A stretch of DNA of 4,397 nucleotides from a virus. Its lineage: Duplodnaviria; Heunggongvirae; Uroviricota; Caudoviricetes. The notes under the pieces are model-generated. The model saw nothing but the letters and a program-made list of their open reading frames with translations. It was not told the DNA's origin and made no database searches. Below, one piece after another: positions 271 through 4,397 of this stretch; positions within the stretch are counted from its first letter, which is position 1, and the number at the start of each line of letters is the position of its first letter. The stretch is from the IMG/VR virus record IMGVR_UViG_2548876698_000016. One strand, 5' to 3'. The position numbers were made by a program, and so were the translations under genes.

Positions 271-642
271 ATGCGTATAGAGTTTGTTTTGCCTTACCCG
301 CCGACGGTGAACACCTACTGGCGACGTCGTGGCAGCACATATTTTGTATCAAAAGCCGGTGAGCGTTATCGCCGGGCTGTGGCGCTTATTGTTCGCCAGC
401 AGCGGCTGAAATTAAGCCTGTCCGGACGGCTGGCAATAAAAATTATTGCAGAACCACCGGATAAGCGCCGCCGTGACCTGGACAACATTCTGAAAGCACC
501 GCTGGATGCGCTGACGCATGCGGAAGTGCTCATTGATGACGAGCAGTTTGATGAAATCAATATTGTGCGCGGTCAGCCTGTGCCAGGTGGACGGCTGGGC
601 GTGAAGATTTACGAAATCAGAGGTGGTAACGATGGCGCGTGA
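271..642 (+). CDS. rusA: Holliday junction resolvase RusA (crossover junction endodeoxyribonuclease RusA family)
   Basis: ATG at 271 preceded by AAGAGG (259-264). The 123-aa product has the size and the RRRDLDN acidic motif typical of RusA ([11 protein letters not shown]...[29 protein letters not shown]...[11 protein letters not shown]). It is similar but not identical to my recollection of E. coli K-12 RusA. Its position between a nin-region gene and Q is typical. Confidence 0.85.
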
Positions 643-1003
643 TATCCAGATGGTTCTTGAGCGATGGGGGGCATGGGCAGCAAATAATCATGAAGATGTA
701 ACATGGCCCTCGATAGCTGCTGGTTTTAAAGGATTAATCCCGACTAAAGTGAAATCACGTCCTCAGTGTTCTGATGATGACGCCATGATAATTTGTGGTT
801 GTATGGCACGATTAAACAAGAATAATCAGTATTTGCACGATTTGTTGGTGGATTATTACGTAGGTGGAATGACATTTATGGCTCTTGCACGTAAGCATAG
901 ATGTTCTGATGGGCTTATTGGTAAAAGGCTTTATAAAGCGGAAGGTATTATTGAAGGAATGCTTATGGCTCTGAATGTCCGGTTAGATATGGATATGCGG
1001 TAG
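632..1003 (+). CDS. Late-gene antitermination protein Q (small Phage_antitermQ family, QuuD-like)
   Basis: The ORF is open from GTG 623, but the likely start is ATG 632 ([23 protein letters not shown]...), with a GAGGTGG Shine-Dalgarno at about 620-627. It overlaps the rusA stop (640-642) by 11 nt, suggesting translational coupling. The ~124-aa, Cys-containing product resembles the small Q antiterminators of DLP12-like prophages and sits directly downstream of rusA. Stop is TAG 1001-1003. Confidence 0.75.
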
Positions 1004-1094
1004 GGATATATAGTGATGAGGGTTATGTTTTCTGTGTTTATAATTAACATGTTTATTTTTTGATGGTCATGTATTGTGGAAGGTAGATAAAATG

Positions 1095-1123
1095 TTGCCT
1101 GGTGAATTGAAAATATTGATAAT
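1095..1123 (+). promoter_or_regulatory. Candidate sigma70 promoter in the Q-downstream intergenic region (TTGCCT -17- GATAAT); possible late promoter or cargo promoter
   Basis: -35-like TTGCCT at 1095-1100, a 17-nt spacer, and -10-like GATAAT at 1118-1123, about 30 nt upstream of the CPBP start. A perfect TATAAT also occurs at 1039-1044 but has no good -35. Prediction is from sequence only. Confidence 0.3.
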
Positions 1124-1154
1124 CAATCTTCATCATTAAATAAAAGGAGTGCTT

Positions 1155-1973
1155 ATGTGGATTGTGTTAGTACTGTCACTGTCAACTCTCAGTTGGCATA
1201 AGGTAGTGGCTTTTTCATTGTTGACGGTGTCTGTTGTCCTGGCTGTGCTTAATGATATTATTGATTGGTCGGTGTTATTTTTTGTTGCTACAATCGTTTT
1301 TTTTATTATTTTGAAGTTCAACTGGAAATATAACGCCTGGGCTAAATCTATATATGAAGTTGGCATAGTTTTATCAGCCATAGCATTATTTTTCCATCTA
1401 TGGCCAGGGTTTCACAATCCTGTAGTGCTAAATTCTGTTACTGTTGGCCCTCAAAGTACTCCCTATACAATGTATTTTAATTTTGATAAAGCGCTGGTGC
1501 CATTTTTGTTAGTCCTGTGTACATCTTCTTTGTTTAAAAAAGAAGTAAAATCAGAAGTGTCTTTGTGGAAGTGGGGGGCTCTGTCGCTCTCTGTTCCTCT
1601 TATCCTGTTTTTGGCTGTTTTTTTTGGTGGATTAAAGCCAGAGATTCATTTTCCTGAGTGGTTGCCAGAGTTTATATTGGCTAATTTGTTTTTTGTGTCT
1701 CTGGCAGAGGAATCATTATTTAGAGGGTATATTCAATCACGGCTATCAGAAGTAACGTCTCCATTGGTTGCATTAATTGTGGCGGCTTTGTTGTTTGGTT
1801 TTTATCACTATTCAGGTGGTGCTTTACTTGTATTATTTGCCACGTTATCTGGTGTTGTGTATGGATTGTCATGGATGTGGAGTGGGCGTTTGTGGGTTGC
1901 CACCCTTTTCCATTTTGGTTTGAATCTGTGTCACTTGTTATTCTTTACCTATCCATTTTTAAAACATAATTGA
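1155..1973 (+). CDS. CPBP family intramembrane glutamic metalloprotease (CAAX protease / Abi-domain, PF02517-like), polytopic membrane protein
   Basis: ATG 1155 preceded by AAGGAG (1144-1149); the ORF track starts at in-frame GTG 1149. The 272-aa product is very hydrophobic with about 8 predicted TM segments. All three CPBP catalytic motifs are present in order: EExxxR (AEESLFRGY), FxxxH (FGFYHY) and HxxxN (HFGLNL). The gene is T-rich and clearly lower in GC than rusA/Q. Stop is TGA 1971-1973. Confidence 0.8.
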   Translation: MWIVLVLSLSTLSWHKVVAFSLLTVSVVLAVLNDIIDWSVLFFVATIVFFIILKFNWKYNAWAKSIYEVGIVLSAIALFFHLWPGFHNPVVLNSVTVGPQSTPYTMYFNFDKALVPFLLVLCTSSLFKKEVKSEVSLWKWGALSLSVPLILFLAVFFGGLKPEIHFPEWLPEFILANLFFVSLAEESLFRGYIQSRLSEVTSPLVALIVAALLFGFYHYSGGALLVLFATLSGVVYGLSWMWSGRLWVATLFHFGLNLCHLLFFTYPFLKHN

Positions 1974-2113
1974 TTTTTTCTATGGTTTTAAATTTATAAG
2001 ACTGAAAAATAGCAGGACGTGACATTTGCATGAAAAATATGCACGGCAAAGCATTTACGTACGTAAAAAATCAGGTATGCTGTTAAGAGTGGTTATTTCG
2101 CCGCATAGCTTGA

Positions 2114-2136
2114 CCCCGCCTCTGAGCGGGTTTTTT
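2114..2136 (+). terminator. Putative rho-independent terminator downstream of the CPBP gene
   Basis: GC stem CCCGC (2115-2119) / GCGGG (2126-2130) with a 6-nt loop, followed by TTTTTT (2131-2136). The stem is short (5 bp), so strength is uncertain. Confidence 0.45.
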
Positions 2137-2259
2137 GTGCCCGCAAAGTAGCGCAGTGCGTTAAATGTGCTGGTAGTTATTAATACAGGTCTTTCAGCTT
2201 GCTGGCTTTTTCGACAAGAGTTATTGGTGTGTCACGTTAACCGGAAAGGGTAAAAAGAC

Positions 2260-2499
2260 ATGCTGAAACAGCAGGATATGACAGAAACCGCCAGAGTTGT
2301 GTTTGATGAATTAAGCGTCACCGAACCGGCGACGGTCGGGGAGATTGCGCAGAATACGTACCTTTCACGCGAGCGCTGCCAGTTAATACTGACCCAGCTG
2401 GTTATGCGGGTCTGGCAGACTATCAGTTCGGTTGTTACAGACGCCTTCAGTCCTGAAGGCTTTTTTATTTGTGGTAAATGGGCGGCTGGTGGGTGTTAG
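2260..2499 (+). CDS. Hypothetical small protein (79 aa) with a possible helix-turn-helix segment; coding status uncertain
   Basis: ATG 2260 follows a purine-rich stretch (GGAAAGGG, 2243-2250); an alternative ATG is at 2278. The segment ATVGEIAQNTYLSRERCQLILTQL looks HTH-like. GC is higher than the flanking AT-rich spacers. Caveat: a canonical terminator hairpin plus T-run (2443-2466) lies inside the last 19 codons, so the true 3' end or the coding status is in doubt. Confidence 0.4.
   Translation: MLKQQDMTETARVVFDELSVTEPATVGEIAQNTYLSRERCQLILTQLVMRVWQTISSVVTDAFSPEGFFICGKWAAGGC
2443..2466 (+). terminator. Canonical intrinsic terminator (7-bp stem, 4-nt loop, T6) located inside the 3' end of the 79-aa ORF
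   Basis: GCCTTCA (2443-2449) pairs perfectly with TGAAGGC (2454-2460) around loop GTCC, followed by TTTTTT (2461-2466) and ATTT. Confidence 0.5.
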
Positions 2500-2527
2500 C
2501 GGCACCTGTCAGTCCTTTGCTTATGTG

Positions 2528-2558
2528 TTGATGATAATTTACCTTTTGGGGCTATAAT
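2528..2558 (+). promoter_or_regulatory. Candidate sigma70 promoter for the AraC-family gene
   Basis: Perfect -10 TATAAT at 2553-2558 with -35-like TTGATG at 2528-2533. The spacer is 19 nt, which is longer than optimal. It lies about 35 nt upstream of ATG 2594 in an AT-rich spacer. Confidence 0.3.
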
Positions 2559-2593
2559 TGAGCTAACCAATTGCTAATGAAAGTAAAATTATA

Positions 2594-3307
2594 ATGGCTG
2601 TTGTCTGTTCAGTTATCATGGTTTGCTCCCCAATTAATATTTTTCTTGAAAAGGATACGTTGTCACTTAAGCCCGGCTCAGTCGTTCTGGCCACCAAATG
2701 CATCAGGGCGCTTTTCCTTATGCATTATGGCAAAGTTAAAATTTTCGATATAAACCATTCCATAGTAAGTCAATATCTGGAAATTCAGCATAAGCTGACA
2801 AGAACTCATCTGACTGACGTTCCGCTTTATCTGTCACTGGAACCCAACAACCCTGCGTTGGCTGAGGCTTTAATTACCAGCCAGAGATTTTCCGGAGATA
2901 CCACGGATATGTTTCTTATGATGGCATGCCTGTCGCTGTTTGAATCAGATGAACGGATATTATTATTTTTAAGTGGATGTTTATCCAGTATAAGTGCCAA
3001 AGTCAGGGCGATAATTCAGACAGATATATCAGCAAGCTGGACGCTTGGTGCGATTGCGTTACGCCTGCATATGAGTGAGAGTTTGTTAAAGATAAAACTG
3101 AAAAATGAAGGGCACATGTTCAGTCGCTTGTTGCTGGAAGAGCGGATGCGTGTTGCTGTCAATATGTTATGTTCCCGGCATGGATATGGACAGGCTGTAG
3201 CAGAAAAATGCGGTTATTCAAGCTGGTCCTACTTTATTTCTGTATTTCACCGCTATTATGGCTTCCCGCCAGACAGATATGTATCCAGGCAAGGGCTTGA
3301 TTATTGA
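2594..3307 (+). CDS. AraC/XylS-family transcriptional regulator, YdeO/AppY/GadX-like subgroup (prophage-encoded)
   Basis: The 237-aa product has a C-terminal AraC-type double HTH (WTLGAIALRLHMSESLLKIKLKNEGHMFSRLLLEERMRVAVNML...AEKCGYSSWSYFISVFHRYYGFPP). The N-terminus MAVVCSVI... resembles the M-x-x-VCSV start I recall for YdeO and AppY, which supports ATG 2594 as the start despite a weak Shine-Dalgarno. The gene is AT-rich. Stop is TGA 3305-3307. Confidence 0.8.
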   Translation: MAVVCSVIMVCSPINIFLEKDTLSLKPGSVVLATKCIRALFLMHYGKVKIFDINHSIVSQYLEIQHKLTRTHLTDVPLYLSLEPNNPALAEALITSQRFSGDTTDMFLMMACLSLFESDERILLFLSGCLSSISAKVRAIIQTDISASWTLGAIALRLHMSESLLKIKLKNEGHMFSRLLLEERMRVAVNMLCSRHGYGQAVAEKCGYSSWSYFISVFHRYYGFPPDRYVSRQGLDY

Positions 3308-3335
3308 TTTTCATCTGATTATTATTTTTTGGCTC

Positions 3336-3411
3336 GGCCCTTTAGCTCAGTGGTGAGAGCGAGCGACTCATAATCGCCAGGTCGCTGGTTCAAATCCAGC
3401 AAGGGCCACCA
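3336..3411 (+). tRNA. tRNA-Ile2 (anticodon CAU, lysidine type; ileX/ileZ-like)
   Basis: A 76-nt cloverleaf folds cleanly: acceptor GGCCCTT/AAGGGCC, D-arm GCTC...GAGC, anticodon loop CTCATAA (CAT at 3369-3371), T-arm GCTGG-TTCAAAT-CCAGC, discriminator A and encoded CCA. It is near-identical in architecture to E. coli ileX as I recall it, including the C4:G69 and C5:G68 pairs used by TilS, so Ile2 is favoured over Met. Confidence 0.88.
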
Positions 3412-3418
3412 TCACATA

Positions 3419-3495
3419 CCGCCATTAGCTCAGCCGGACAGAGCAATTGCCTTCTAAGCAATCGGTCACTGGTTCGAATCCAGTACAACGCGCCA
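3419..3495 (+). tRNA. tRNA-Arg (anticodon UCU)-like gene; acceptor stem anomalous, possibly a degenerate or pseudo-tRNA
   Basis: D-arm (TA-GCTC-AGCCGGACA-GAGC), anticodon arm (ATTGC-CTTCTAA-GCAAT, TCT at 3453-3455), 5-nt variable loop, T-arm (ACTGG-TTCGAAT-CCAGT) and 3' GCCA are all canonical. However, the presumed 5' acceptor strand (CCGCCAT, 3419-3425) is not complementary to the 3' strand (ACAACGC, 3485-3491) in my hand fold, so the boundaries and functionality are uncertain. Confidence 0.6.
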
Positions 3496-3509
3496 CACTT
3501 ATTTTCCCT

Positions 3510-3535
3510 GGCTCGCTTTTGCGGGCCTTTTTTTT
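3510..3535 (+). terminator. Strong rho-independent terminator following the tRNA genes
   Basis: 7-bp stem GGCTCGC (3510-3516) / GCGGGCC (3521-3527) with one G-U pair and loop TTTT, followed by eight T residues (3528-3535). Confidence 0.7.
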
Positions 3536-3732
3536 AAATGTCTCACAATTCAGGCGGTTGACTGTTGTCTGGTTTGCGGGGAGTTTGTTAAAAGAAACTG
3601 GCATGGTGAATCCCCCTGTGCGGAGGGGCAATCAGCGAGTAGGTATATGGGATAATCGCGGATTCAGGTGCTGGTACTGAATTCACCGGGAGGCACCCGG
3701 CACCATGCAATGGCACATAGCGCCACTCTCCA

Positions 3733-3756
3733 GCCCCTCTCCGGAGGGGCTTTCTT
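3733..3756 (+). terminator. Terminator-like hairpin (plus-strand orientation) in the tRNA-to-nanS intergenic region
   Basis: 7-bp stem GCCCCTC (3733-3739) / GAGGGGC (3744-3750) with loop TCCG, followed by TTTCTT (3751-3756). The U-tract is imperfect. Confidence 0.45.
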
Positions 3757-3762
3757 ATGGAC

Positions 3763-3791
3763 AAAAAAAGCCCGCGCAGGGAGACGCGGGC
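3763..3791 (-). terminator. Intrinsic terminator oriented for leftward (minus-strand) transcription
   Basis: 7-bp stem GCCCGCG (3770-3776) / CGCGGGC (3785-3791) with an 8-nt loop. On the + strand it is preceded by AAAAAAA (3763-3769), which is a U7 tract after the hairpin on the minus strand. Confidence 0.45.
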
Positions 3792-3984
3792 GGCAAGGAA
3801 TAAACAACAAAACGTGAAGTAATATTTCAGCTGGCGAATAATATCCGACAGTAATCACTCTGCGCAATAGCGCGGCCTTTTTCGTATTGCGGGCTGTTGT
3901 CTCTCTTCTGCCATTGTCCTGTAACTTCCGGACTTCAGCCCGCTCCTCATTTTACTCACAATATTATCCCGGCCGGGAGGATTC

Positions 3985-4397
3985 ATGGCATTTAAACACT
4001 ATGATGTTGTCAGGGCGGCGTCGCCGTCAGACCTTGCGGAAAAGCTGACACACAAACTGAAAGAGGGCTGGCAGCCATACGGCGGACCGGTTGCCATTAC
4101 GCCGTACACACTGATGCAGGCGGTGGCTATTGAAGGAGATCCACAGGTCGGCCCTTCATCTAAGCCGGACTGGTTCTACGTGGTTGTGCTTGCCGGACAG
4201 TCCAACGGCATGGCCTACGGTGAAGGGCTTCCGTTACCGGATTCTTACGATGCTCCGGATCCGCGCATTAAACAGCTGGCGCGCCGCAGCACGGTAACTC
4301 CGGGTGGAGAGAGTTGTACGTATAACGACATCATTCCGGCTGACCACTGCCTGCATGATGTGCAGGATATGAGTACGCTGAATCATCCGAGGGCTGA
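3985..4397 (+). CDS. Prophage sialate O-acetylesterase NanS-p-like protein (DUF1737 N-terminal domain + SGNH/SASA esterase), 5' portion; continues beyond the window
   Basis: ATG 3985 preceded by GGGAGG (3973-3978). The frame is open to the window end (137 codons). Translation MAFKHYDVVRAASPSDLAEKLTHKLKEGWQPYGGPVAI... matches the DUF1737-type N-terminus, and FYVVVLAGQSNGMAYGEG carries the GQSN block of SASA-type esterases. GC is high and E. coli-like. The placement upstream of lysis genes is as recalled for lambdoid and Stx prophages. Confidence 0.8.
   Translation, partial: MAFKHYDVVRAASPSDLAEKLTHKLKEGWQPYGGPVAITPYTLMQAVAIEGDPQVGPSSKPDWFYVVVLAGQSNGMAYGEGLPLPDSYDAPDPRIKQLARRSTVTPGGESCTYNDIIPADHCLHDVQDMSTLNHPRA

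Follow-up and report, generated by a model that had tools for sequence, protein, structure and literature searches.

Which of the genes that a lambdoid prophage carries between its antiterminator gene Q and its late-region tRNA genes belong together, and which only share an address? The question is raised by a stretch of 4,397 nucleotides from the tailed-phage record IMGVR_UViG_2548876698_000016 (the window, by which the whole stretch is meant), in which three open reading frames (ORFs) lie between Q and the tRNAs at positions 1004–3335: a CPBP-type membrane protease, an ORF of 79 aa and an AraC-type regulator (psr). A reading of the letters alone (hereafter the sequence-only reading) had treated the three as one AT-rich cargo block and as a candidate lysogenic-conversion or defence/exclusion module. 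All three ORFs are present as it described them (Table 1; the protease with a start at 1149 or 1155), but the single block comes apart, as a late promoter and its leader (2054–2466) stand between CPBP and psr and the two genes assort independently. The interval is very probably a mosaic around the phage's own late-control region, with two unrelated add-on genes and no three-gene module.

In the arrangement that we propose, a first slot (A, from Q to the late promoter PR') would hold an independently transcribed moron for an intact CPBP/Rce1-type protease, which would be made in the inner membrane of the lysogen from its own promoter and cleave an envelope or peptide substrate. Next would come a Q933-type PR' and a leader with two terminator-like hairpins and an ORF of 65 aa that is frameshifted in Escherichia coli O157:H7. 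A second slot (B, from the leader to the tRNA cluster) would hold psrA with its own promoter-like site; its product would raise gadE and yhiF, by which glutamate decarboxylase (GAD) acid resistance would go up, type III secretion of the LEE (locus of enterocyte effacement) indirectly down, and persistence in sheep be promoted.

Across all of its 4,397 bases, the window is 99.7–99.8% identical to E. coli O157:H7 chromosomes and corresponds to the stretch from Q to nanS in a lambdoid prophage of the Sakai Sp4 type, where the Sakai annotation gives the order ECs1083 (rusA), ECs1084 (Q), ECs1085 ('CAAX protease'), ECs1086 (hypothetical) and ECs1087 (AraC family), followed by ileZ-argN-argO, a nanS-p-type esterase and, a few kb on, pchA (ECs1091). 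In the closed EDL933 genome, the matching block lies in the prophage adjoining yccA, and by gene order the original EDL933 names of the three block ORFs are Z1787, Z1788 and Z1789. The flanks hold RusA (PF05866) and Q (PF06530) on the left and nanS-p, from 3985 on, on the right. Q of the window shares 79% amino acid identity with Q of 933W/VT2-Sakai; its core is complete and the difference is confined to the variable C-terminal tail.

The position of PR' can be derived from the related prophage Sp5 (VT2-Sakai). There, the PR' transcript StxS is 258 nt long, is cut by RNase E between GU and AUU at +173 and has its 3' end at tR' (Sy et al. 2020, PMC7547250). The Sakai sequence satisfies these numbers in one way only, with the start at the A 7 nt after TATCAT and the end at the T-run of the second hairpin, and TTTACG–N16–TATCAT is therefore PR' in Sp5. 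The homologous element of the window consists of a -35 hexamer TTTACG (2054–2059), N16 and a -10 hexamer TATGCT (2076–2081) and begins 80 bp 3' of the CPBP stop codon. In a comparison with Sp5 that spans 84 nt, identity is 75%; the -35 hexamers are the same, the -10 hexamers alike (TATGCT versus TATCAT) but not equal, and the initial transcribed motifs nearly identical, and on this homology PR' is placed at 2054–2081 with its predicted start at A2088. From 2054 to 2136 the window thus reads TTTACG, N16, TATGCT, GTTAAGAGTGG and the hairpin CCCGCCTCTGAGCGGG-T6. Taken together, the two late regions share the Q family, the palindrome in which the -35 lies, the initial transcribed motif (GATAAGAGTGG/GTTAAGAGTGG) and the first hairpin. 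In Sp5, however, PR' overlaps the Q stop codon, as does the sequence GTTTACGATCGTAAAAATCTGCATATCATGATAAGAGTGG, after which a hairpin comes, whereas in the window an 819-bp protease gene lies between Q and PR'. The StxS body of Sp5 (the 3' 74–85 nt; PMC7547250) is absent from the window, which has a leader with the 65-aa ORF in its place. A StxS homologue in the window was considered and rejected, as the likeness is limited to PR' and the first hairpin, along with a remnant of 11 nt, and does not extend to the body of the small RNA.

In every Q933-family locus examined (L007, L010, L011, L017, L020 and L021), the same PR' element comes next after Q or after Q and its cargo. In L010 and L011 an ORF6N antirepressor precedes it; in L020, L017 and L021/L022 it is preceded by CPBP variants of 96%, 59% and 62% identity, respectively, all of which keep the order Q–CPBP–PR'. 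Since PR' comes after CPBP, the protease gene lies between Q and PR' and hence outside the Q-dependent late transcript. The -35 hexamer of the window is embedded in a perfect 14-bp palindrome, TTTACGTACGTAAA (2054–2067), with counterparts in L011 (4738) and Sp5 (L019, 412–425). Its centre co-varies between GT/AC and GA/TC, the form of L010 and L011 being TTTACGATCGTAAA, and in phage Stx2_95, whose Q is only 48% identical, its place is taken by another palindrome, GCGGTCCGC. The palindrome may be a Q-binding element.

Downstream of PR', the DNA is phage backbone rather than cargo. From hairpin 1 through the 65-aa ORF, hairpin 2 and about 60 bp more, the sequence is near-identical in four loci with different Q; hairpin 1 is kept with compensatory changes in these four loci and is also found in Sp5, and hairpin 2 overlaps the intact 65-aa ORF at its stop codon. 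Of the 5,426 complete E. coli genomes that were searched for this and all following counts, 2,159 have the module of leader and 65-aa ORF, at 4,703 places in all. The loci part ways just 5' of the psr promoter-like site, where Stx2_95 and RM11911 have a DNA methyltransferase. Hairpin 1 may serve as a partial terminator or as part of a Q-loading pause. In Sp5, hairpin 1 (L019, 472–494; +27 to +49) is strong and terminator-like, and StxS nevertheless ends at the next hairpin.

The 79-aa ORF, which had been counted as a gene of the block, belongs to this late leader and is broken by a frameshift. Compared to intact 65-aa copies, a G is missing between 2406 and 2407 (GGTTATGGCGGG in intact copies versus GGTTATGCGGG in the window), and without this loss the frame would run to 2456. 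The gene is frameshifted in the Sp4 lineage of O157:H7, where PGAP labels it 'TrmB family, frameshifted', and intact in non-O157 enterohaemorrhagic E. coli (EHEC). The 79-aa ORF is, on this alignment, a pseudogene. It has no Pfam match, and the 65-aa ORF gave only a marginal match in PADLOC (SWIM_XIII, E=0.003). In very many lambdoid prophages, Stx2 phages included, the first gene to follow the late-leader hairpin is the 65-aa ORF.

Table 1. Features of the interval between Q and nanS-p and of its borders, in window coordinates.
Feature	Position	Strand	Basis and remarks
Antiterminator Q, Q933 family	632..1003	+	PF06530, 175 bits; left flank, outside cargo
AT-rich region 5' of CPBP	1004..1154	+	28.5% GC; promoter-like hexamer pairs 1064–1093, 1095–1123, 1107–1136 (consensus scan)
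CPBP/Rce1-like glutamic intramembrane endopeptidase (ECs1085/Z1787), slot A cargo	1155..1973	+	PF02517
Late promoter PR', Q933 family (predicted)	2054..2081	+	Homology to motif at Q end, Sp5/VT2-Sakai
Leader hairpin 1	2115..2136	+	Terminator-like stem CCCGCC/GGCGGG + T6; +28 to +49 of predicted late transcript; scan
'79-aa ORF', frameshifted 65-aa winged-helix gene (ECs1086/Z1788)	2260..2499	+	Alignment to intact copies; phrog_331
Leader hairpin 2	2443..2466	+	Intrinsic-terminator-like stem GCCTTCAG/CTGAAGGC + T6; scan; kept in four loci
psr promoter-like site ATGATA–16 nt–TATAAT	2531..2558	+	Best in consensus scan, 10 of 12; start of slot B cargo
psrA-type AraC/YdeO-like regulator (ECs1087/Z1789), slot B cargo	2594..3307	+	PF12833 + PF00165
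tRNA-Ile2, anticodon CAU, ileZ	3336..3411	+	ARAGORN; Rfam tRNA model 72.5 bits; Sakai ileZ1
Hybrid argN/argO tRNA-Arg remnant	3419..3495	+	Alignment to strain 493/89; Rfam model positions 7–64 only
Terminator-like hairpin after tRNA cluster	3510..3535	+	Scan

Base composition follows these divisions. With 40.1% GC and 35.4% T, the interval 1004–3335 is lower in GC than its left (1–1003, 48.2%) and right (3336–4397, 53.8%) flanks, a gap far above sampling noise for 2.3 kb, and the low overall GC on which the sequence-only reading had built is thus real. The AT-richness is not uniform, however. The CPBP gene (37.7% GC) has 41.6% T, a high value that is expected for a membrane protein, and psr has 42.4% GC, whereas the segment 2054–2259 (44.7%) and the 79-aa ORF (51.2%) give the leader at 2054–2466 the ordinary composition of E. 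coli and phage DNA (45–51% GC). Moreover, Q itself has 41.9% GC, and since low GC begins already inside Q, position 1004 is no compositional boundary. What remains are two AT-rich genes with DNA of ordinary composition between them.

The distribution of the two genes across genomes separates them further. CPBP occurs at 577 places in 572 genomes (about 10%), and in all 572 a Q–CPBP junction is found, every CPBP copy being joined to this Q allele; psr, in comparison, occupies 1,324 places in 726 genomes. The complete junction from CPBP over the 65-aa ORF to psr, with slot A and slot B both filled as in the window, is present in 555 genomes. Among the matches listed for CPBP, EHEC serotypes predominate, and the CPBP–psr copies are at least 99% identical across the EHEC lineages O157, O145, O111, O26, O103 and O121; going by this identity, they represent what appears to be one prophage type common to EHEC lineages. 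Outside this type the slots are filled differently. CPBP is combined with a DNA methylase in slot B in RM11911 and with neither the 65-aa ORF nor psr in L017. Conversely, more than half of the psr places are without CPBP: slot A is empty before psr at the OI-57 position of EDL933 (O-island 57; a second copy in the same genome) and in an inducible Stx2k phage, and it holds the ORF6N antirepressor in L011, a commensal isolate. In Stx2_95, finally, slot A is empty and slot B carries a DNA methylase. Since CPBP without psr and psr without CPBP both occur in various prophages, the cargos of the two slots assort independently. The synteny comparison which the sequence-only reading had suggested therefore came out on both sides: the genes do occur together, and they also occur separately. 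Phage mEp460 was considered as a cargo-free comparator and set aside as uninformative, as its Q is a different one.

The ORF6N/antirepressor-like gene (phrog_2379) sits in the Q–PR' slot behind a Q of the same family (L011, 4160–4720; L010, 4153–4638) and has weak matches to the PADLOC candidate family PDC-S05. The general idea of a cargo slot between Q and lysis has held up, as the same positions are empty in some related phages and are filled in others by stx2, a DNA methylase or an ORF6N antirepressor. Like lambdoid morons and stx-type cargo, CPBP and psr are of atypical GC and variably present between otherwise homologous phages, have promoter-like sites of their own and are expressed in lysogens. 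psr also lies directly 5' of the ileZ-argN-argO tRNAs, which precede stx2 in Stx phages, and in the Stx2k phage phiSTEC1575 it is found directly 5' of the tRNAs and stx2k. Instead of a single slot, however, there are two here, the first preceding PR' and the second following the leader, and whereas stx needs Q read-through, CPBP and psr appear to be Q-independent.

The slot B gene is no stranger to the literature. Its product has an AraC-type helix-turn-helix domain (PF12833, 36.6 bits; PF00165, 35.3 bits; both over cut-offs), its best family matches are YdeO (full-length, about residues 1–229, 105 bits) and GadX, and its best match in the PDB is the DNA-binding domain of GadX (3mkl, E=1.5e-18). 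It differs from the Sakai/EDL933 protein in one amino acid (99.6% identity) and matches the PsrB-position copy, which closed EDL933 has in its OI-57-position prophage, in 216 of 237 residues (91%). For ECs1087, the Sakai annotation starts at an internal ATG (195 aa; L002, 6127–6714) and PGAP at an upstream ATG (237 aa); the longer form is preferred because of the full-length alignment to YdeO. The psr promoter-like site is kept in psr-bearing loci, and the methylase-bearing phage Stx2_95 diverges here. In the old EDL933 annotation, the order is Z1785 (endonuclease), Z1786 (Q), Z1787 and Z1788 (hypothetical) and Z1789 ('putative envelope protein'), then a tRNA gap of three numbers, Z1793 and Z1794 (holin). 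We read the label of Z1789 as EnvY-like and hence as AraC family. As this order is the order of the window, its genes would be Z1787, Z1788 and Z1789 and its regulator of the PsrA type; by gene order and elimination, we infer that it is Z1789 (psrA).

The anatomy, homology, independent assortment and transcription described here are results of the present analysis; the function of PsrA is that given in the literature. PsrA (Z1789) and PsrB (Z2104, OI-57) are AraC-like, 90% identical and found only on prophages with pch and effector loci (PMC10877973, PMC8565820). With both, GadE and YhiF go up, and type III secretion is repressed by this route (PMC10877973, PMC8565820, citing Tree et al. 2011 together with Yang et al. 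2015); PsrB binds to the promoters of hdeA and gadE and improves survival in acid, PsrA has a part in persistence in sheep, and PsrB replaces PsrA in trans and is active without a CPBP neighbour (PMC10877973, PMC8565820). The regulator of the window resembles PsrA, PsrB and PatE in its C-terminal AraC-type helix-turn-helix, its length of 237 aa, its identity to the PsrB-position copy, the gene order Z1786–Z1794 and its residence on a lambdoid prophage that also has a PerC/Pch regulator (pchA, ECs1091, in Sp4; a PerC-family gene 3' of the lysis genes in strain 493/89; and a PerC gene with the OI-57 copy). With YdeO, GadX and GadW it shares the full-length YdeO alignment and the GadX-like DNA-binding domain, and its published target gadE is the node that YdeO activates. 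In contrast to these regulators, it is prophage-borne, has its own promoter-like site and scores 105 bits against an equivalog cut-off of 348. For the AraC gene, the suspected lysogenic conversion is accordingly borne out, as a PsrA-type function (PMC10877973), and the effects on acid resistance and virulence gene reporters that had been proposed for assay are already published for PsrA/PsrB (PMC10877973). The notion of an undescribed system falls for the same gene, a published regulator of the PsrA type (Z1789; PMC10877973, PMC8565820).

For the slot A gene, a function can be proposed from its homology. The match to PF02517 is well over threshold (70.6 bits versus a cutoff of 22.4), and the catalytic motifs EExxxR, FxxxH and HxxxN (E185-E186-R190, F214-H218 and H253-N257) are invariant in an alignment of 14 homologues (47–84% identity), and the protease is predicted to be intact. 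Unlike other members of the family, it is phage-borne, fixed between Q and PR', and without an adjoining bacteriocin, sortase-tag or two-component partner. Phage variants of 59–62% identity still sit after a Q933-family Q, which argues for long-term retention at this place. Chromosomal relatives of about 50% identity are single-copy genes in Dickeya, Hafnia, Enterobacter, Providencia, Pantoea and Photorhabdus, in unrelated neighbourhoods with no conserved neighbour. The phage gene thus has the look of a protease of housekeeping type that was captured and is missing from the E. coli core genome. Its PHROG has no assigned function, a protein cluster look-up returned generic annotations only, a PDB sequence search with the CPBP profile gave no match, no member of its enterobacterial subfamily (about 272 aa) having a solved structure by that search, and no substrate candidate is encoded nearby. 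Literature searches, full text included, on CPBP and prophages found nothing for E. coli phages and no ECs1085 phenotype or subfamily function, and a search by the locus tags ECs1085, ECs1087 and Z1343 returned nothing specific. The defence candidacy of the block was not borne out by PADLOC-DB v2, in which no family matched CPBP or psr at E≤0.1. It is nonetheless possible, if doubtful, that CPBP is an old partner of Q933 antiterminators and a lysogen-expressed inner-membrane factor of a new superinfection-exclusion or immunity type. Its targets, suggested just as tentatively, might then be a protein of an incoming phage, a receptor or transporter of the host, or a peptide toxin.

Transcription in lysogens can be followed in strand-specific EDL933 transcriptomes (Landstorfer et al., PMC4048457, Table S4), in which the background is about 0.14 reads per kilobase per million (RPKM). 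In LB, Z1785 (rusA) reaches an RPKM of 6, Z1786 (Q) 5, Z1787 (CPBP) 39, Z1788 11 and Z1789 (psrA) 7; Z1787 rises to 51 with trimethoprim-sulfamethoxazole, and Z1789 to 18 at pH 9, 16 at 15 °C and 12 in faeces (PMC4048457). Under SOS-inducing antibiotics, Z1787 is up by 2.3 log2 (PMC4048457). None of the three genes is therefore silent; silence of all three would have spoken against the module of the sequence-only reading. The roughly eightfold excess of CPBP over the upstream Q in LB fits a promoter of its own, with candidates at 1064–1136, and we infer that CPBP has one.

On the right, the late-region tRNAs are partly as had been described: tRNA-Ile2 is intact, and the tRNA-Arg pair has been fused into a broken hybrid. 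Compared to Sakai, EDL933 and strain 493/89, a deletion of 90 bp has joined argN (UCG) and argO (UCU) at a shared TTAGCTCA, leaving a mismatched and broken acceptor stem, and ARAGORN called no tRNA over 3419–3495. Both tRNA-Arg genes are present in each of the 20 best genome matches. Between the terminator of the tRNA cluster and nanS-p, the window also has a match to the Rfam family STnc100 (RF02076; 3572–3762) with 138 bits, the gathering score being 47.

The fused tRNAs belong to the signs of wear that speak for another explanation, in which a defective prophage carries the block as decaying baggage and CPBP has no selected function in E. coli. The frameshift of the 65-aa ORF, the insertion sequence (IS) elements and inverted lysis cassette near this locus in Sakai and EDL933, and the absence of an ECs1085 phenotype from the full-text search are in line with it. 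Against this, CPBP is full length, with catalytic residues invariant down to 59% identity and one constant position after Q, which together point to purifying selection; it is transcribed well over background, and psrA has phenotypes in vivo (PMC10877973, PMC8565820). We consider decay of the whole block improbable.

Still less probable is the co-acting module with which the inquiry began, in which protease, small ORF and AraC regulator would serve defence, exclusion or lysogenic conversion together, for example by the protease controlling, or being controlled by, the regulator. CPBP proteins do pair with signalling systems in Gram-positives (MroQ–Agr, Abx1–CovS and SpdC–WalK), and the three genes are adjacent in 555 genomes and all transcribed. 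However, a conserved phage late promoter and leader lie between them, the middle gene is a pseudogene here, CPBP and psr are each found without the other, psr aligns over its whole length to a soluble regulator, YdeO, and no PADLOC model was matched; PsrB, moreover, is active without a CPBP neighbour and replaces PsrA in trans (PMC10877973, PMC8565820).

Several points nevertheless weigh against the mosaic with two unrelated cargos. In 555 of the 572 CPBP genomes (97%), psr is the neighbour of CPBP, and a functional link is conceivable; because the copies are at least 99% identical, this adjacency rather suggests inheritance of one recently spread prophage type. Hairpin 1 of Sp5 is evidently passed by transcription (StxS being 258 nt long), and either hairpin may act as tR' in the window. 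For the promoter of CPBP, the support consists of weak hexamer matches and of ratios between RPKM values, the reads having been mapped to EDL933 in its old reference form. The findings of Tree 2011, Bender 2012 and Yang 2015 are taken from two reviews. Lastly, psrA and its neighbours belong to CP-933N/OI-50 according to the literature and to the EDL933 annotation of 2001, whereas in tblastn searches the potC-side prophage of closed EDL933 (L004) and Sakai Sp6 (L003) had neither psr nor CPBP, the block being found in the yccA-side prophages (L005 and L002, the latter Sp4); the equation with Z1789 stands on gene order and elimination. The discrepancy may reflect a swap of similar prophages in the 2001 EDL933 assembly.

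The proposal that the Q-dependent late operon begins with CPBP and that the protease is made in the lytic phase only, for example to modify the envelope or lysis timing, can draw on lambda, in which PR' directly follows Q, on the promoter-like hexamers at 1064–1136 and on the rise of Z1787 with SOS-inducing antibiotics, but is very hard to maintain, since a PR' at 1004–1154 had to be rejected (the region right after Q is not conserved within the Q family), the homology-placed PR' motif lies 3' of CPBP in five variants, and Z1787 exceeds Q eightfold in uninduced LB.

For the mosaic around the late-control region, the main content is largely known already, PsrA being a published link by which acid resistance and type III secretion in O157:H7 are tied to the content of its prophages. 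What interest is left concerns ECs1085/Z1787, a conserved and transcribed membrane protease that is predicted to be catalytically intact, and the two-slot anatomy of the Q933 family, which predicts a different expression logic for cargo 5' of PR' and cargo 3' of the leader. The map discrepancy of psrA bears on how deletion phenotypes of O-islands (ΔOI-50) are to be read. Should the exclusion or immunity role proposed for CPBP be true, the protease would be a new gene type present in about 10% of complete E. coli genomes.

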